A stretch of DNA of 64,000 nt, taken from NCBI GenBank assembly GCA_965223505.1, contig CBDCWP010000021.1, forward strand, positions 256,001 to 320,000. Direction: 5' to 3'. The DNA is from Planctomycetota bacterium (GTDB lineage Bacteria > Planctomycetota > PLA2 > JAEUHO01). Made by a program: the position numbers and the translations under genes. Shown one piece after another: positions 5,208 through 24,824 of this stretch (positions are counted from its first letter, which is position 1; each line of letters starts with the position of its first letter). The notes under the pieces were generated by a model, which had not been told where the DNA came from, made no database searches, and saw only the letters and a program-made list of their open reading frames with translations.

Positions 5208-5331
5208 TCGAGAATCAGCTTACGGCAGGTCGGCGGGCAAAGCACATCCCGCTTCCAACCGTCGGACGAACGTTCGCCAAACGGTGTTCCGCGGCGTCGG
5301 GCACGGTCGCCCCGGAGGCCCGACAGAGCGC

Positions 5332-6126
5332 CTATCGTTCGGTCTTGAACAGCTTCGAGGGCTTGGATTTGTTCGCCTTGTACGCCTCGTGCCAGGCCTC
5401 GGCCGTCTCGAAGCTCTGGCCCGTCAGCTTGTTCAGCGCGGCGATCAGAGGGGCCTGGAGGCTGCGGAAGCGGGCCCGCGCGGCGCCACCCATGCCGCGA
5501 TTGCTGCCGCCTCGCACGGCGCCGGGCGCCAACGACGCCATGAACTCGATCAGCTGCTTGAGAATCTTGACGCGCTGCTTCGAGTAGCTGTAGCTCCCGA
5601 GCGCGCGCACCGCGGCGGTGGCGGCGTTCATGTCCTTGCCCTTCTTGGCGAGGTTGAACAGGTCCTTGACCGCGGTGTCGGGCGCGAGCTTGTCGACGGC
5701 GCTCAATACGCGCATCTCGAGCTGCCCGGCCGTTTCGTCCTTCTCCTTCGGCATGAACTTCTTGAGCTGCTTGTAGGCGCCCTTCTCGTCGTAGAGCTCG
5801 CCCAGGGCGTCGACCGCCTCGAGACGCAGGACGATCACGAGATCCTTGTCCTTCACCACGTCGCCGATCGCGTCCTGCAACTTCGAACGCGCGGCGGGGG
5901 TGCGCAGCTTGTTGTGAAGCGCGACCGCTTGCTTGTAGGTGACCTTCAGGCCGGCGCGGTCCTTCGCCTCGTGCTGCGCCTCGATCTTCTCGACGAGCTT
6001 CGCGGCGTCCTTGACCCGGTACTCCTCGTCCGGATCGGAGGCGAAGGCGGTTCCGCAGCAAACGACGAACGCGACGGCGATTCCGATTCGCCGTCGCGTC
6101 GCAGAGTGATCGGTGCGGTTCGTCAT
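5332..6126 (-). CDS. Secreted HEAT-repeat-like protein
   Basis: Start trimmed to MTNRTDH (ATG 6126); signal peptide ...GTAFA; LRLEAVDALG and AAVRALG HEAT-like units. Confidence 0.7.
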   Translation of the reverse strand: MTNRTDHSATRRRIGIAVAFVVCCGTAFASDPDEEYRVKDAAKLVEKIEAQHEAKDRAGLKVTYKQAVALHNKLRTPAARSKLQDAIGDVVKDKDLVIVLRLEAVDALGELYDEKGAYKQLKKFMPKEKDETAGQLEMRVLSAVDKLAPDTAVKDLFNLAKKGKDMNAATAAVRALGSYSYSKQRVKILKQLIEFMASLAPGAVRGGSNRGMGGAARARFRSLQAPLIAALNKLTGQSFETAEAWHEAYKANKSKPSKLFKTER

Positions 6127-6224
6127 CGTTCCCTGAAACACAGGGTACCGGCGACGGTTGCGAATTGACTCTCGAAGGGGCCGCAAGGCCCTGAGCAGCG
6201 CGCAGGCCGCCCACCGTCGAACGG

Positions 6225-7157
6225 CTATTCGCCGTCGCCGTCCTTCTTGCCGCCGTCGCCGTCCTTCTTCTCGCCGCCGTCGTCGCCTTCCTTTTTCTCG
6301 CCTTCGCCCTCGCCTTCCTTCTTCTCGCCTTCGCCTTCGCCTTCCTTTGCGTTGGCGGCCTCCTCGGCGGCGGCTTCGGCCTCTTCCTTCTCGCGCTCGA
6401 GCGCCTCTTCCAGCGCCCGCTCGGCCTCCTTCTTCGCGCGCCGAACGGTCGGCTGGGCGACCTTCAGGGGCAGCAGGAACGGACGCATCATCGCACCCTC
6501 GCCCACGCCTTCCTGCTGGACGGCGATGCCCGCCACAGCGCCTTCGGCGTTGTAGAGCGGCTCGGCGATGAAGTTGCCCGCGCCCTGCACGGCCCACATC
6601 GTGCGCGGCTTGGTGACGCGGCCGACGACGCGGACCTCGTCGCACATCGGCGCGTGGTCGAAGCCCTGACCCAGGCGCGTGACGCCGTAGAGCGTGTCAC
6701 CGATCTTCGGCTCGACGGTCTGGGTGAGATCGACGACGGTGATCTCCTTGCCCTCGAGATCCTTGATCAGGACGAAACCCAGGCCGAGCTTGCTGTCCTT
6801 CGCGCCGAGGATCGCCGGGTACTCCTTCTCGTCACCGGGGAAGATGACGCGCAGGTTGGTGGGCGTCGCCTTCGCATCGACCTGCATACCGAAACGCGGC
6901 GCGTTGAACAGCCCGGCCGGCGCCATCACGAGCCCCGCGGGATCGACGAGCACGCCCGTCGCCTCGCGGTTGAACTCGCGGTCGATGTTCTGCCCCTGGA
7001 AGTTGATCTGCACGGCCAGCACGAACTTGAGTTGGACGACGGCGGCAGCCTTCGTCTCGATCAGCTGACCGTGCGGCGTGTCGCCCCTCGCCGTAGCCGA
7101 CGCGAGACACAGGACGGCGACCGCGGCGGCCGCCGAACCGAATTTGCGAATGTTCAT
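6225..7157 (-). CDS. Secreted trypsin-fold protein lacking the catalytic triad, with an acidic Gly/Lys/Glu repeat tail
   Basis: ATGVLVDPAGLV and PLYNAEGAVAGI match trypsin/HtrA strands, but the His and GNSGG motifs are absent; signal peptide. Confidence 0.7.
   Translation of the reverse strand: MNIRKFGSAAAAVAVLCLASATARGDTPHGQLIETKAAAVVQLKFVLAVQINFQGQNIDREFNREATGVLVDPAGLVMAPAGLFNAPRFGMQVDAKATPTNLRVIFPGDEKEYPAILGAKDSKLGLGFVLIKDLEGKEITVVDLTQTVEPKIGDTLYGVTRLGQGFDHAPMCDEVRVVGRVTKPRTMWAVQGAGNFIAEPLYNAEGAVAGIAVQQEGVGEGAMMRPFLLPLKVAQPTVRRAKKEAERALEEALEREKEEAEAAAEEAANAKEGEGEGEKKEGEGEGEKKEGDDGGEKKDGDGGKKDGDGE
6229..6348 (-). repeat. Imperfect in-frame tandem repeats (21-27 nt units) encoding KEGEGEGEK/KDGDGGK
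   Basis: Visible repeated tcgcc(t/g)tc...cttctt units. Confidence 0.8.
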
Positions 7158-7184
7158 CAATCTGCTCCTTCCACAGCCCTTGGT

Positions 7185-9245
7185 CTAGTTGTCGCGCGGC
7201 CAATCCGGCTGCACGAAGACGAAGGCTGTGGAGCGCCCCCGCCGGACAAAGAATCGAATGCGCTTCGGCCGCTCGTCGGCGAGCCGCTTCACGAACTCCT
7301 TGAACGCCTTGATCGTCCTGATCTCCTCGCCCTGAATCCGCAAGATCATGTCGCCCGAACGCAGGCCGGCCACGTTGGCCCAGCTGCCGAGCGTGACGTC
7401 GGCCACCATCAGGCCTTCGTACTCCTTCGTGAGCTCGAGGTCCACGCGGTCCATGTAGGTGAGCTCGCGAACCTTGTACTCGAGGAGCTCGTCCTCGGCG
7501 GAGCGAGCGTCGGCGGCCGTCTCGGGGGTCTCTTCCAGCGTGACCGAGACCTCGATCTCCTTCAGGCCGCGAATGACGGCGAGCTTGGCGTCGACGCCGA
7601 TGTCCATGTCCTCGATCTTGTGCCTCAAGATCTGCGCGTCCTGAAGGCTCGTTGCGTTCAGCTCGTCACCGTCGACCGCCGTGATGATGTCGCCCGCCTT
7701 CAGGCCGGCCTTCTCCGCCTCGGTCCAGGGCAGGACGCGCGTGACGCGGAAGCCCTTCTTGCCTTCGAGGTTGAGCGCCGTGGCGACCTTCGGCGTCAAC
7801 ACCTGCGTCTGCACGCCGAGCCACGCCTTGGCCAGCTCACCGCTGCCGCGACGGCTGGGCTTCTTGGACATGTCGAGCACCGTGATCATGTCCCGCTTGC
7901 CGCGACGGAACTTCACCGACAGCGCCTTGCTGCGCTTGTGCTTCCGCATCAAGCGGGCGAAGTCCTCACTGTTCTTCACGGGCTTGCCCGCGATCTCGAG
8001 GATCACGTCGCCCGAACGAAGCGCCGGCTTGGCCGCGTCGGGCGGGCCGCCGGGGCGCAGGGTGCGAAGCAGGACGCCGTCGGTGTTCGGGTAGTTGCGC
8101 GAAAAGGCCATCATCGTCGTGATGTCCATGGCGCTGACGCCCCAGATGGAGTACGCCTGCTCTTCGCCGGCGTGCTTCTCCATGGGCGCGACCATGACGT
8201 CGATCGAGTGGATCTCGCCGCCGCGCTCGTAGACGACCTTGGCCGGCTTGTTCTGCGGAAGATCCGCGATGCGCGACAACAGCGTCGGCACGTCCTCGAA
8301 ACCCTGGACGGAGACGCGCTCACCCGCGATCGAGACGATCACGTCGCCCGGCTGAATGCCCGCCTTGTCGGCGGGACCGCCGGGCATCACGGCCGAGACC
8401 AGGGCGCCGTCCTCGCGCTCGAGGTGATTGACGGGGTCCACCGAGAGGCCCACGAACCCGCGGCGAACTTCGCCGTAGGTCAGGGCCTGGTTCAACACCT
8501 TCGTGACCATGTTCGAAGGGATGGCGAAGCCCACGCCGCCGCCGCCGCGCGTGTTGATCCCGACGATCTCACCCTGGAGGTTGATGAGCGGGCCGCCGCT
8601 GTTGCCGGGCAGGATCAGCGCGTCGTGCTGGATCCACTGGTTGAAGATGCCGGTCGCGTTTCCGCCGAGCTGCATCGACTCGATGCGGTCGCCCGTGAAG
8701 CTGGTGAAGACGCGCGCCGTGTTCGAGACGATGCCGAGCGTCACCGAGCTGCTCATCGCGTGGGGGTTGCCCATCGCGAGCACCTGGTCGCCGACGCGCA
8801 GCTTCGACGAGTCGCCCACGGCCGCGAACGCCACCGGCTTCGTCGTGTCCTTGCGCTGGTCGAGCCGCATCTTGAGGATGCAGAGGTCGGTGAAGGGGTC
8901 GCCGCAGATGATGTCGGCGTCGACGACCTCACCGGTGGTCAGCTTGCACGTCACACGCGTCGCGTCACCGGCGACGTGGTAGTTGGTGACGACGTAGCCG
9001 CCGGGGCTGACGACCACACCGCTGCCCGCGCCGGGCGCCCGCATCTCACGTCCCTGCACGAACTGGCGCGCGATCACCGCGATGTTGACGAGCGCCGGGT
9101 AGACCCGGTCGCGCGCGAACTCGACGGCCTTGCGGACCTTGGCTTCTTCGTCCGTCTCGGCGCGAACCGTGGGAGGAGCGAAAGTCCCGACGGCGATGAG
9201 CAATGCAAGTGACAGCGTGAAAAGGCGAAGGCGAGACGACATCAC
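7185..9245 (-). CDS. HtrA/DegP-family serine protease with about four PDZ domains
   Basis: TNYHV, DPFTDL, PGNSGGPL triad motifs; repeated AG(I/L)..GD.I PDZ motifs. Confidence 0.92.
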   Translation of the reverse strand: MMSSRLRLFTLSLALLIAVGTFAPPTVRAETDEEAKVRKAVEFARDRVYPALVNIAVIARQFVQGREMRAPGAGSGVVVSPGGYVVTNYHVAGDATRVTCKLTTGEVVDADIICGDPFTDLCILKMRLDQRKDTTKPVAFAAVGDSSKLRVGDQVLAMGNPHAMSSSVTLGIVSNTARVFTSFTGDRIESMQLGGNATGIFNQWIQHDALILPGNSGGPLINLQGEIVGINTRGGGGVGFAIPSNMVTKVLNQALTYGEVRRGFVGLSVDPVNHLEREDGALVSAVMPGGPADKAGIQPGDVIVSIAGERVSVQGFEDVPTLLSRIADLPQNKPAKVVYERGGEIHSIDVMVAPMEKHAGEEQAYSIWGVSAMDITTMMAFSRNYPNTDGVLLRTLRPGGPPDAAKPALRSGDVILEIAGKPVKNSEDFARLMRKHKRSKALSVKFRRGKRDMITVLDMSKKPSRRGSGELAKAWLGVQTQVLTPKVATALNLEGKKGFRVTRVLPWTEAEKAGLKAGDIITAVDGDELNATSLQDAQILRHKIEDMDIGVDAKLAVIRGLKEIEVSVTLEETPETAADARSAEDELLEYKVRELTYMDRVDLELTKEYEGLMVADVTLGSWANVAGLRSGDMILRIQGEEIRTIKAFKEFVKRLADERPKRIRFFVRRGRSTAFVFVQPDWPRDN

Positions 9246-21395: not shown

Positions 21396-22556
21396 TCAGT
21401 CCAACTTCAACTTCTTGCGCAGCACCGCGACGTACGCGGCGCGCTGCTCTTCCGTCCAGCCGTCGGGCGGATCGGGGAGGCGCTTGCGCGCGGAGCCCTC
21501 CATGAGCGACACCTGGATGCTCTGGACGAGCGACACGGCGGCCCGCGCCTTGCGTTGATCGTCCTCCGCGACGGCGGCGGGCAGGCCGTCGAGCAGAGCG
21601 CGTAGCGCGCGTGTCTTGTCGTCGTCCTTCACGCGCGAAGCGATCGCGCCCAGCGCGTGCGCGACGCTGCGGCTCGTGCCGTTGTAGGGGTTCATCTGCT
21701 TCGAGAACGCGGCGAGCGCGTCGATGCACGCCGCGTCGCCCGACTTGACCATGCACTTGGCCGCCCACCCACGCAGCACGTTCGGATTGCCCGACGGCAC
21801 GTCCTTGCCGGCGCCCGCGAACAGCTTGGCGAGGATCGGCGCCAGGTCGGTTCGTTCGTGCGACTCGAGCGCTTTGAGGACGGCGAAACGAATCGTGTCG
21901 CTGGGCGCTTCGAGGAAGCCCTCCGCGCCGTCCACGAGCTCCTGGGGCGCCTCCTCGGCCATGTACTGCACGCAGCGAATGCGAATCACGATGTCCTCGT
22001 AGGGATTCGCCGCCAGCTGGTTCAGCTTCTTCGGCTTGACCTTCCTCTTGTCGCGCAGCTGTTCTTCGAGCTCGAGCAGGCGCGTGTGCTGCTCTTCGAA
22101 CGCGGCGATCGCCTGCTCGTCGCCCTTGACGTCTCGGCCCTCGAAGCCCTTCTTCAACGCGTCGACGCTGCGCCCCAGGCGCGCCAGGATCCGGTCGTCG
22201 TTGGGGTCGATGAGGAAGAGATGCGGCCAGCTGGTGACCCCGAAGCGGTCGTGCGTGCGCGCGGCTTCGCGGTCGGACTCGTCGTCACGCCAGGTGCGAC
22301 AGACGTAGATCCAGACGACCTTCTCGTAGCTGTCCTTCAGGTCTTCGTGAGGCAGCACCTGCTCCTCGATGGGGACGCAGTGGGGTCAGTGCTTCTTCGT
22401 GAAGTAGGCGAAGATCGGCCGGCCCTTGCTCAGCGCCTCCTTTTTCGCTTCGAGCCAGGTCGGCTTCCACGGCGGCCCGTCGGGAATCGTCTCCCCCGCG
22501 AACGCGGCCGGCGCGATGAAGACTCCGACCAACACGAACGGAAGCGCGCACCTCAT
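21396..22556 (-). CDS. Putative selenoprotein: secreted thioredoxin-like domain (UxxC) fused to a HEAT-like helical domain; in-frame TGA at 22386-22388
   Basis: ATG 22556 gives MRCALPFVLVGVFIAPAAFA...PPWKPTWLEAKKEALSKGRPIFAYFTKKH-TGA-PHC-VPIEEQVL, in frame with the track ORF 21396..22358; cis-Pro motif FGVTSWPHLFLIDP. Confidence 0.8.
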
Positions 22557-22752: not shown

Positions 22753-22880
22753 AAGAAGATGGCCGGGGGGCCGGCCCAAAACGGGCGGCCCCACCGGCCA
22801 GGGGGAGCTCAGTGGGAGGGAGGGAGGGTAGGGCAGGGAATGAGCTCACCCCTACACGTGGCCTTTTGGCCATCCATACT
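22753..22880 (-). ncRNA. Candidate small RNA with a C-rich (CCCU)n loop and intrinsic terminator
   Basis: Three consecutive hairpins; the last is followed by TCTTCTTG on the minus strand; ECF-like promoter immediately upstream. Confidence 0.5.
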
Positions 22881-22884
22881 CTAT

Positions 22885-22911
22885 GACGGAAACCAGGCAT
22901 CAGTTGTTTCA
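22885..22911 (-). promoter_or_regulatory. ECF sigma-type promoter candidate TGAAAC-N17-CGTC
   Basis: TGAAAC at 22911-22906 and CGTC at 22888-22885 on the minus strand. Confidence 0.45.
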
Positions 22912-22942
22912 ACGATTACCCGGAATGAGCGCCGAATTCAGA

Positions 22943-22970
22943 AGCGCCGGGCGGCGAGCCGCCCGGCGCT
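22943..22970 (-). terminator. Perfect GC-rich inverted repeat downstream of the 22999..23421 gene
   Basis: AGCGCCGGGCGGC-GA-GCCGCCCGGCGCT. Confidence 0.65.
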
Positions 22971-22998
22971 CAGAGTGGCCGCGAATAGGGGTTCGGAC

Positions 22999-23421
22999 CT
23001 ACAAGCGGAAACGGCCGCCGATCGTGACATGGCCCACCGGACGGCGGTGGACGCGGCGGTGAATGACTCGCCGGTGCGGCACCCAGCGGCGGACCGGCAC
23101 ACGGACGGTTTCCACGTCCCAGTGGCCCTCGCTGTAGACGGCATGCCCATGGCTGTCGTAGCCGATGAACTCCGGCGCGTGATAGACGCGCCGCCGCTCG
23201 TAGCGGTACTCCGTCACCCAGTAGCCGCCGGTGTGGCGAACCCGGGTGCGGTGCGCGTGGCGGTGCCCGCCGATCGGAATCGAGACGCCGATGCCGATGT
23301 GGGTACCGCCGAAGGCCACGCCGGATGCACCGGAGCTGAGCGGCGCTGCCTCCGCCGTGCTCGGAAGTGCCAGGGCCAGGCCGGCCACCAGCGCTGCGGG
23401 AAGGATCAGAATGCGAAGCAT
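22999..23421 (-). CDS. Small secreted His/Arg-rich protein (YXWGXW-repeat-like)
   Basis: Signal peptide MLRILILPAALVAGLALA...AEA; GGYW, EGHW and RRWVP units. Confidence 0.7.
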   Translation of the reverse strand: MLRILILPAALVAGLALALPSTAEAAPLSSGASGVAFGGTHIGIGVSIPIGGHRHAHRTRVRHTGGYWVTEYRYERRRVYHAPEFIGYDSHGHAVYSEGHWDVETVRVPVRRWVPHRRVIHRRVHRRPVGHVTIGGRFRL

Positions 23422-23622
23422 GGTCTTGTTCTCCGTTCGGCCCGCCGGATCAGGCCTTGGCGATGCGGGAGACTTCACACGTTCCGTGCCAGACGGCGCG
23501 CCGAGTCCGTAAACCACTGTACAATATGTGGTTAGAGAGAGGGCCTGCCGCAGGACGACGCGCGGCTGTCCCCGCAGGTGGACAGTCGCGGTCGCCGCGT
23601 CGGGCCCCTACGATGAGGGGCC

Positions 23623-24066
23623 GTGTCCGAACCGATCTCCATTCGCGCTCACATGGTCCTCTGTCTGCAGGGGTTTCGCGGGGAGGGGTACTCGATCACG
23701 TTCGTCTCCGAGATGGCCCAGGTGCTGCGGGAACTGACCGAGGATCCGGAGCGGCCGGTGCGCCTGATCACGAGCCCCGACCGCATCTGCCGCGCCTGCA
23801 GCAACTTGCGAAACGGCGGCTGCACCCTCGGAGGACCGGATCACGAGAGCCACATGCACGATCAGGACGCAGAGGTCCTGCGGCGGCTCTCCCTGGACGA
23901 GGGCGGCGTCTACCCCTGGCGCCTCGTCCTCCAGCGGATCGGGGCAAACGTGCGTGGAGCCGACCTCCCGGCGATCTGCACGACCTGCCCTTGGCTCGAG
24001 CTCGGATATTGCACCGAGGCGATGGACCGGCTCGCCAGCGCCCCGGCGGCCCCGGAAACCGACTGA
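23623..24066 (+). CDS. DUF1284-like Cys/His-rich protein
   Basis: IRAHMVLCLQGFRGEGYS..F, PDRICRAC, CTTCPW...C pattern. Confidence 0.75.
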   Translation: MSEPISIRAHMVLCLQGFRGEGYSITFVSEMAQVLRELTEDPERPVRLITSPDRICRACSNLRNGGCTLGGPDHESHMHDQDAEVLRRLSLDEGGVYPWRLVLQRIGANVRGADLPAICTTCPWLELGYCTEAMDRLASAPAAPETD

Positions 24067-24824
24067 TGGCCGGGGAGCGCCCCCCGTCCGCCGACGCCGC
24101 GCCGGAACCGGGGGGAAGCGGGAAGGACGAAGGCCCGGAGGCGTCCAAGAGGCGACCTCCCGACCCGGAACGCCCCATGTCCGCATCCCTCGCCCGATCC
24201 CAGCCTCGTCGTGCGCCCCGGCGGCCAACGCGCCGCCGCGTACGCGGGCCCGACCGCGCCGTCCAGGACCTGTGGACGGCACGACTGCGCGAGGGCGACC
24301 ACGACACGCTGCGCGAGGTGATGCAGGCCTATGGGGAGCGCATCACGGCCGTCGTTGCGGGCATCCTGCGCGACCGGGACGCGGTGGACGACGTCGTCCA
24401 GGAGGCGTTCACCAAGGTCTTCTACCGCATCCACTCGTTCAAGGGGACGTCGAGCCTGTACACGTGGATCTACCGCATCGCGGTCAACGCCACCAAGGAC
24501 TACATCAAGTCCCGCAAGCGCCGTCCCGCGTCGTCGCTCGACGACCTCCCGGCGCCGTTGGCGCTGCCGCAGCAAGGACGACCGATGCTCGAGGGCATCG
24601 AACAACGCGAGCTGCGTCTGCGCGTGCGCGGCGCCATCGATCGCCTCCCTACCAAGTTTCGTTCCGTGCTCGCGCTCCGCGAGATCGAAGGCATGGCGTA
24701 TCACGAGATCGCCGAGGTCATGAGCCTGAGCCTGGGCACGGTGGAAAGCCGGCTCTTCCGAGCACGAAAGCGTCTGCGTTCGCTGCTCGCCCGGGAAGAG
24801 CAACGTGAGAAAGGGACCTCGTGA
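24066..24824 (+). CDS. ECF RNA polymerase sigma factor (start uncertain; 24066 or 24177)
   Basis: DDVVQEAF, TWIYRIAVN (region 2); LREIEGMAYHEIAEVM, GTVESRLFRAR (region 4). Confidence 0.92.
   Translation: MAGERPPSADAAPEPGGSGKDEGPEASKRRPPDPERPMSASLARSQPRRAPRRPTRRRVRGPDRAVQDLWTARLREGDHDTLREVMQAYGERITAVVAGILRDRDAVDDVVQEAFTKVFYRIHSFKGTSSLYTWIYRIAVNATKDYIKSRKRRPASSLDDLPAPLALPQQGRPMLEGIEQRELRLRVRGAIDRLPTKFRSVLALREIEGMAYHEIAEVMSLSLGTVESRLFRARKRLRSLLAREEQREKGTS

Follow-up and report, generated by a model that had tools for sequence, protein, structure and literature searches.

Does an in-frame TGA codon end a gene or encode selenocysteine (Sec, U)? This question is raised by positions 21396-22556 of a 64,000-nucleotide window of DNA (the whole stretch that was analyzed) from an uncultured member of the Planctomycetota. 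The window is located on contig C21 of a 5.15-Mb assembly that is 92% complete. On its minus strand, a frame runs from an ATG codon at 22554-22556 to a stop codon at 21396-21398 with a single internal stop, a TGA at 22386-22388 (codon 57). Translation confirmed the original prediction, made from the letters of the window, that the frame extends upstream through this one TGA to an ATG at 22556. The read-through product has 386 residues and consists of a hydrophobic leader ending in A-F-A before G21, a thioredoxin (Trx) fold and a series of HEAT-like repeats. The residues K-K-H-U-P-H-C surround codon 57, and the stretch F-G-V-T-S-W-P follows 47-54 residues downstream. A listing of open reading frames (ORFs) under translation table 11 gives just a 320-residue ORF (21396..22358) with a GTG start. 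Comparison with related genomes indicates that 21396-22556 of the minus strand is very probably a genuine Sec-encoding gene for an exported protein of Trx and HEAT-like architecture.

Conservation of the TGA codon

A six-frame search of 60 relatives revealed 14 orthologues outside this genome (G000), each with exactly one internal TGA. Thirteen of these are near full length (34-48% identity in the search, 33-47% for the 13 aligned) and one is ended by a contig edge. The TGA always lies within the motif Y-[FL]-T-K-x-x-U-P-H-C-V. All of the genes open with a start codon located 53-62 codons before it, and their leaders are alike. The order comprises 40 genomes; the gene is found in 15 of them, with TGA in all 15 copies. 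The family alignment was also used as the query against an evenly drawn sample of 401 Planctomycetota genomes, where all 28 near-full-length matches (E <= 1e-86) contain TGA, and genome G124 has a split match that carries U-P-H-C. A further 23 loci came from a pattern scan of the species genomes in GTDB, all of them in metagenome-assembled genomes (MAGs) and labeled as Planctomycetota or a subgroup of it (21 loci), "Planctomycetia" (one) or "bacterium" (one).

After deduplication, the genomic forms comprise 37 distinct sequences with TGA and three with TGC (L093, L095 and L096). The third residue of the redox motif in this wider set is H, A or S. The original prediction had placed the TGA at the first position of a CxxC-type site in a Trx fold and had looked to homologues with Cys or TGA at this codon as a check; both forms are present among these 40 sequences. 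Representatives with CPHC at the Sec site also exist in protein databases, one of which matches the active-site stretch of the TGC locus L095. Judged from the aligned genes, the recurrence of the TGA column in 37 orthologues is far beyond chance.

This pattern bears directly on the two simplest alternatives. The first is that the TGA is a true stop, so that the locus holds a 56-codon upstream ORF and a separate HEAT gene from GTG 22358, or else a pseudogene that a nonsense mutation has disabled. Table 11 and all public gene calls show exactly this form, and TGA ends 7 of the 24 long frames of the window that are rich in G and C at third codon positions (GC3). However, the Trx fold spans the TGA, and a TGA column shared by 37 diverged orthologues, with TGC in three others, is incompatible with the decay that the original prediction regarded as the mark of a pseudogene. 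Real decay looks otherwise, as in a relative from genome G125 in which an internal deletion removes the active site. In addition, GC3 is 0.911 over codons 1-56 and 0.912 over codons 58-386 compared to 0.679 in the 168 nt before the ATG, and a covarying hairpin is present 3' of the TGA (see below). A true stop is thus very improbable. The second alternative is a sequencing or assembly error at a TGC, TGT or TGG codon in a MAG. Depth is indeed low (3-5.7 per contig), but contigs of runs X2 and X4 cover the TGA codon with 0 differences and 36 other assemblies have the same codon. Run X2 shares its sample with X1, the possible data source of the assembly, and X4 comes from a different sample of that study. 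An error of this kind, which had been named at the outset as a danger to the prediction, is barely credible.

The selenocysteine machinery of the genome

The decoding of UGA as Sec depends on selA, selB, selC and selD, whose presence in the genome had been put forward as a check of the prediction, and all four were found. The genome contains selA (436.7 bits), a selB gene recognized by its SelB-specific winged-helix domain (56.6 bits) in a 662-residue frame, and a tRNA-Sec that scores 69.2 bits versus the Rfam gathering score of 47 and that ARAGORN calls as tRNA-SeC with anticodon tca. The selD gene (338 bits) adjoins selA and contains one in-frame TGA. The two genes lie side by side at G000:C8:37088-39232 (L001 and L011), and the in-frame TGA suggests that SelD is itself probably a selenoprotein in this genome. 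The TGA codon is also an ordinary stop that terminates the gene studied here and the seven window frames mentioned above.

In the phylum sample, SelA is found in 29/29 genomes that carry the gene versus 290/401 genomes as background, a co-occurrence that is weaker than it appears given the relatedness of the carriers. Sec use appears to be widespread in Planctomycetota because SelA is encoded by 290 of the 401 sampled genomes.

UGA may also be read as a residue other than Sec, namely Cys delivered by a mischarged tRNA-Sec, Trp inserted by a near-cognate tRNA, or the product of a reassigned code. In favor of such a reading is that the inserted residue is deduced from sequence alone. However, TGA terminates this gene and other genes of the window, so the code is not reassigned, and the hairpin together with complete selABCD indicates the canonical route; moreover, the carriers always have SelA. 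There is accordingly a small chance at most that a residue other than Sec is inserted.

A covarying hairpin downstream of the TGA codon

RNAalifold, applied to 15 sequences, finds unaided a hairpin whose first stem base is located 23 nt from the U of the UGA. The consensus from RNAalifold and from pair counts on 37 sequences is a 5-bp stem (GGAGC/GCUCC) that closes an AGUU or AGGU (AGKU) loop. Pairing occurs in 95.1% of 185 cells (37 sequences) compared to 38-76% after displacement of the 3' partner by 1-3 columns. Changes on both sides are present in three of the five pairs (16 cells), and the covariation score is 0.304 versus 0.113 +/- 0.020 for shuffles, a value reached by 0 of 500. The most variable pair joins position 1 of codon 65 (G/A/C, encoding Glu, Lys or Gln) to the wobble position of Leu68 (C/U/G), with counts of GC 19, AU 7, CG 6, GU 2 and other or unpaired 3. 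That an amino-acid change at codon 65 is matched by a synonymous change at Leu68 is hard to ascribe to selection at the level of the protein. The three TGC forms lack both the conserved hairpin and the E-x-Q-L-L-P peptide that it encodes, and Gln is present at position 66 in none of the CPHC database forms examined. The hairpin at 22349-22367 is predicted to be a bacterial Sec insertion sequence (SECIS) element.

The original prediction had proposed a different hairpin (approximately 22359-22380) directly following the UGA. This structure is feasible in the mRNA of this gene (-8.2 kcal/mol), but it was rejected as the SECIS of the family, as its pairing is confined to the closest clade (this gene, L015 and L017). 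It overlaps and excludes the conserved hairpin, which lies a few bases further 3' and is slightly stronger (-9.3 kcal/mol).

In Escherichia coli fdhF, SelB reads a SECIS stem-loop that lies in the coding region immediately 3' of the UGA and whose apical loop contains G and U. The conserved hairpin described here resembles the fdhF element both in this location and in these loop bases. It differs in its 5-bp stem, its AGKU tetraloop and the 23-nt spacing from the U of the UGA, and binding by SelB is putative. A compact covarying SECIS consensus for Planctomycetota could help to recover other hidden selenoproteins.

Several observations weigh against the reading of this locus as an exported selenoprotein gene with a SECIS element. 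The canonical 5-bp form is present in 30 of the 37 Sec forms and lacking in seven, which possess a shifted or different hairpin at a similar place or a 4-bp core, or, in L068, no visible hairpin. The conserved stem is only 5 bp long. In the gene studied here the covarying pair is a G.G mismatch, and the hairpin needs a 7-bp alternative with a bulged G (22349-22367, -9.3 kcal/mol). An unrelated hairpin of 6 bp occupies the equivalent distance in the Cys form L095. Furthermore, the hairpin sequences are related, and the shuffle statistics overstate their independence. The 76-nt region 22320-22395 folds no better than shuffles (z -0.20), and an Rfam scan of 22200-22500 (E <= 10) returned no SECIS family and just a chance snoRNA match, although so short a hairpin may be beyond the reach of the Rfam SECIS models. 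The ratio of nonsynonymous to synonymous differences (pN/pS) for 78 orthologue pairs is 0.60 over 31 codons before the Sec codon and 0.57 over 60 codons after it, which shows only that both sides behave alike, since dN/dS is saturated and GC3-biased at this divergence and uninformative in absolute terms. None of the public runs that hold the locus is labeled as RNA, and the signal peptide and its cleavage site were read by eye.

Domain architecture and related proteins

The original prediction of a clean signal peptide is consistent with the export-type leader, read by eye, in 14/14 aligned full-length orthologues. The leader ends in A-x-A-G in 13 of the 14 and in A-S-A-E in L017. Two Pfam families match across the TGA, Thioredoxin_2 (PF13098; residues 43-127, 36.9 bits, cut-off 27) and Thioredoxin_7 (PF13899; residues 30-118, 33.2 bits, cut-off 27), and HEAT_2 (PF13646) matches residues 258-329 (29.7 bits versus a cut-off of 27.7). 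An AlphaFold2 (AF2) model based on a 14-row alignment contains two confident domains, with a predicted local distance difference test (pLDDT) score of 91.2 and a predicted template modeling (pTM) score of 0.86; residues 1-20 are disordered (pLDDT < 50). U57 occupies the leading, nucleophilic place of the U-x-x-C site. In this model, U57-C60 immediately precedes helix 61-66 of the Trx fold (residues ~26-144), and the helices of residues 147-383 make up the repeat domain.

The N-terminal domain possesses the hallmarks of a Trx fold, namely a CxxC-type motif ahead of the first long helix, a cis-Pro loop and structural similarity to many Trx chains (Z 10-13). By structural alignment its nearest relative is DsbH (2ju5; Z 12.9, root-mean-square deviation 2.4 over 115 residues), followed by a UAS domain, 3f9u (Z 11.7), proteins of the AGR3/ERp18 type and DsbD-gamma (1vrs, Z 10.7). 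Likeness to the DsbH/DsbD-type fold was also obtained with Foldseek (E 4.5e-4) and with a profile comparison to 2ju5 (E 3.7e-4). The C-terminal half was predicted at the outset to be a helical-repeat domain, and on this point HEAT_2, the AF2 helices, profile comparison and structural matching agree. The domain matches HEAT-like alphaRep, armadillo and CpcE/F lyase repeats (Z 10-12), and the family profile matches alphaRep chains of the Protein Data Bank with E 2e-13. It contains an invariant S-x-N-P-N-V-x-R stretch (residues 255-262).

DsbH, DsbD-gamma and the DsbD-like domains are exported Trx domains of the reducing branch. The nearest solved folds to the N-terminal domain belong to this group (DsbH, 2ju5; DsbD-gamma, 1vrs, 1uc7 and 2fwe; and the C-terminal domain of the DsbD-like cytochrome-c-biogenesis protein 3f9u), but these are Cys proteins that stand alone or are attached to a membrane transporter and have no repeat domain. 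Although the fold is alike, the DsbH equivalog NF043050 scores only 16 bits against its cut-off of 190. Indeed, no NCBIfam family reaches its cut-off; the remaining scores are 16.7 bits for NF041199 (cut-off 300) and 11.7 bits for TsoB (cut-off 805).

A combination of a Trx fold with a helical-repeat client module is also known from YbbN/CnoX proteins, which are cytoplasmic, contain tetratricopeptide rather than HEAT repeats and lack Sec. Two of these (3qou and 3qdn) rank third and sixth in the Foldseek search, but the overall structural match is weak (TM 0.16-0.21) and the likeness is an architectural analogy, not membership.

Selenoproteins with UxxC in a Trx fold are the commonest known kind, and the present family is a new family-level variant of them in architecture and signature. 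The best NCBIfam match, the Trx7/PDZ (seleno)protein NF041199, likewise combines a Thioredoxin_7-type domain with a second, protein-binding domain. Besides the low score, it differs in possessing CxxU (as given in the table of PMC13188914) and a PDZ domain in place of UxxC and HEAT-like repeats, and no PDZ family is found among the Pfam matches of the protein studied here. The "Thiol:disulfide interchange protein" selenoprotein family, a row of the same table, shares the PF13098 domain, one Sec at the first position of UxxC and a predicted redox role. As far as the table description allows comparison, the present family differs in its approximately 240 residues of HEAT-like repeats, its Y-F-T-K-x-x-U-P-H-C signature and in having been found in Planctomycetota MAGs only.

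Public annotation and the literature

Public gene calls for the family systematically begin just after the TGA and drop the redox half of the protein. All 20 database relatives at E <= 1e-20 cover 50-83% of the query and are missing its N-terminal part; any that bear a name are called "hypothetical protein" or "HEAT repeat protein". Furthermore, in 48 of the 100 best representatives (E <= 1e-30) the alignment opens with residue 1-2 opposite profile positions 61-72. The expectation that automated annotation would truncate the gene is therefore correct for the table 11 ORF and for 20 of these 20 relatives.

A table of 119 prokaryotic selenoprotein families is given in PMC13188914 (2026). The Trx plus HEAT-like architecture has no row in this table, and the word "HEAT" occurs 0 times in the main text. 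Sec use in some planctomycetes is described in PMC4807772, in passages that name other selenoproteins. No report of a selenoprotein with Trx and HEAT domains was found in the literature, with subscription journals and supplements outside the search. The original suggestion of a possibly undescribed family is in keeping with these results and with the absence of a fitting NCBIfam selenoprotein model. The gene adds a well-supported family to the prokaryotic selenoprotein catalog, with an architecture that is in neither the PMC13188914 table nor NCBIfam. The advance is incremental, given how common UxxC selenoproteins with a Trx fold are and that the biochemical role is deduced.

Proposed function

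With the ribosome positioned at the UGA, SelB-GTP-Sec-tRNA(Sec) would bind the hairpin and insert Sec, as at E. coli fdhF, and translation would then proceed through the remainder of the Trx fold and the HEAT-like repeat domain. Export by the general secretory (Sec) pathway and cleavage of the leader would yield a periplasmic protein. This protein may act as a selenol/thiol-disulfide oxidoreductase that forms a U57-C60 selenenylsulfide and is reduced again by one of the two DsbD-type transporters of the genome, with the rigidly joined repeat domain binding one particular client protein. We regard reduction or isomerization in the periplasm, fed by DsbD and with client docking by the repeat domain, as the most likely role, and hold this proposal with about even confidence. 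The reducing or isomerizing direction is suggested because the fold is nearest to DsbH, DsbD-gamma and the DsbD-like cytochrome-c-biogenesis domain. The genome also encodes a VKOR-DsbA fusion, with VKOR and DSBA domains in one 481-residue frame (G000:C31:87556-88830); therefore, oxidation already has a dedicated enzyme. The role cannot be read from genomic context, because the gene stands alone between plus-strand genes and no neighbor is conserved over 19 loci, where the recurring clusters derive from close relatives or are antisense shadow ORFs.

Alternatively, Sec decoding may be the same and the protein may work on the oxidizing side, as a DsbA-like donor of disulfide (selenenylsulfide) bonds, an envelope isomerase or a scavenger of peroxides or electrophiles. 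The P-H dipeptide between U and C is that of DsbA (C-P-H-C). Of the 40 genomic forms, 37 retain Sec, which hints at a reaction that Sec performs clearly better than Cys. In addition, DsbB was not found in the 92%-complete genome. However, the fold is without the helical insertion of DsbA and is best matched by DsbH, DsbD-gamma-like and ERp18/AGR-type proteins, the VKOR-DsbA fusion is already available, and the DsbA-like dipeptide is lost where the third position of the motif is A or S. An oxidizing role is possible but doubtful.

Two points count against the proposed reductase or isomerase. The P-H dipeptide, shared with the oxidase DsbA, makes the functional direction much less certain than the Sec gene itself. 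In addition, some full-length relatives are redox-dead paralogues, since they keep the Trx fold and the HEAT-like domain without an active-site Cys or Sec ("...YLRTQNSMSEQ..."; L074:945-2265 in G382:C60, and P0088, P0058 and P0030). Such sequences suggest that the repeat domain or scaffold may have a binding role that needs no redox chemistry.

A more far-reaching proposal is that the gene represents the founding member of a Planctomycetota-specific group of exported selenoenzymes in which selenium is near-obligatory (37 Sec and three Cys genomic forms). On a rigid HEAT-like platform, a single envelope client or a small ligand containing selenium, sulfur or a metal would be offered to the U-P-H-C center. 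Rather than reducing disulfides in general, the protein would be a node of a largely "selenized" periplasmic redox network to which the Sec-containing gamma domain of a DsbD-like protein also belongs. This proposal is speculative and rather unlikely to hold in full.

The second DsbD-like gene of the genome (L100:304-2706; G000:C11, approximately 5262-7664) encodes DsbD_N and DsbD_TM domains in 714 residues by table 11. It ends at a TGA (L100:2446-2448) after "...LLDFTADW", precisely at the W-x-x-x-C site of its gamma domain, and read-through would give W-U-A-T-C and 85 further residues of a Trx fold, so that a Sec-containing gamma domain has probably been lost to annotation. The idea that the DsbD proteins of the genome lack a gamma domain, which the protein studied here would supply, was rejected, as one of them has W-C-A-K-C and the other has a gamma domain behind its own TGA. 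Together with the probable Sec codon in the DsbD gamma domain, the family suggests that part of the periplasmic thiol-disulfide chemistry of these bacteria runs on selenium.

Evolution of the family

A neighbor-joining tree (200 bootstraps) was built, after masking of the Sec/Cys column, from an alignment of 53 rows and 343 columns; its deep nodes are unresolved. Support for the split between the core family and more distant G-C-P-H-C forms is 100%. L095, a Cys form, falls within a clade supported at 98% whose seven Sec forms include the gene studied here, and three other Cys forms make up a 99% clade. The tree indicates that there is at least one switch between Sec and Cys inside the family, for which no direction is claimed.

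The relative from G125 (L075:800-1430, G125:C118) has lost an internal stretch with the active site, so that its leader and first strand ("...PIFVYLT") run directly into the repeat domain, and it is either a decay product or an assembly artefact. The Cys-form homologues P0008, P0027 and P0040 possess an extra N-terminal domain of approximately 200 residues. Identification of this extension as DsbD-alpha was rejected, since P0008 alone matches DsbD_N and does so below the cut-off (18.1 versus 25 bits), which is a hint only. If the P0008-type extension is real, it would be a fusion of the alpha-gamma-like kind and would connect the family with electron relays of the DsbD type.

Many weaker matches to the N-terminal domain with exactly one in-frame TGA were found in other Planctomycetota genomes, in frames of 330-450 residues (for example, G001:C127:143789-144241, G154:C8:522855-523283 and G029:C43:78032-78394). 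These are further Trx-fold selenoprotein candidates, perhaps of the Trx7/PDZ family.

Features of the locus and neighboring genes

Table 1. Coordinates of the features assigned to the locus, numbered by position in the window
Feature	Position	Strand	Basis or remark
Complete selenoprotein gene (very probable), 386 codons plus stop	21396..22556	-	ATG 22554-22556, terminal TGA 21396-21398; orthologues share length and layout
Predicted signal peptide, residues 1-20, A-F-A before G21, no lipobox Cys	22497..22556	-	Leader read by eye
UGA codon for selenocysteine (very probable), residue 57	22386..22388	-	37 orthologue sequences with TGA in this column, 3 with TGC
Redox motif U57-P58-H59-C60	22377..22388	-	U/C57, P58, H59, C60 and V61 invariant in alignment A2
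Predicted bacterial SECIS hairpin, 7 bp with bulged G, loop AGGU, -9.3 kcal/mol	22349..22367	-	Family core is 22352-22365
Thioredoxin-fold domain, residues ~26-144, DsbH / DsbD-gamma / ERp18-AGR type	22125..22481	-	Pfam, AF2, Foldseek and structural alignment
cis-Pro loop motif T108-S109-W110-P111	22224..22235	-	S109 and P111 invariant and W110 nearly so in A2
All-helical HEAT-like (PBS-lyase type) repeat domain, residues ~147-383	21408..22118	-	Pfam HEAT_2, AF2, profile search and structural alignment
Truncated ORF, 320 residues, GTG start	21396..22358	-	Table 11; form held in public databases (P0010)

The neighbors of the gene in the window encode pyruvate dehydrogenase E1, an ORF of no known kind, an ECF (extracytoplasmic function) sigma factor and PilM, and they give no hint of function. 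A 258-residue ORF without a Pfam family lies divergently upstream on the plus strand (22759-23535). The ECF-type sigma factor is encoded on the same strand at 23367-24824, in a 485-residue frame. Its true start is probably much later, because the sigma-70 domains are confined to residues 320-471.

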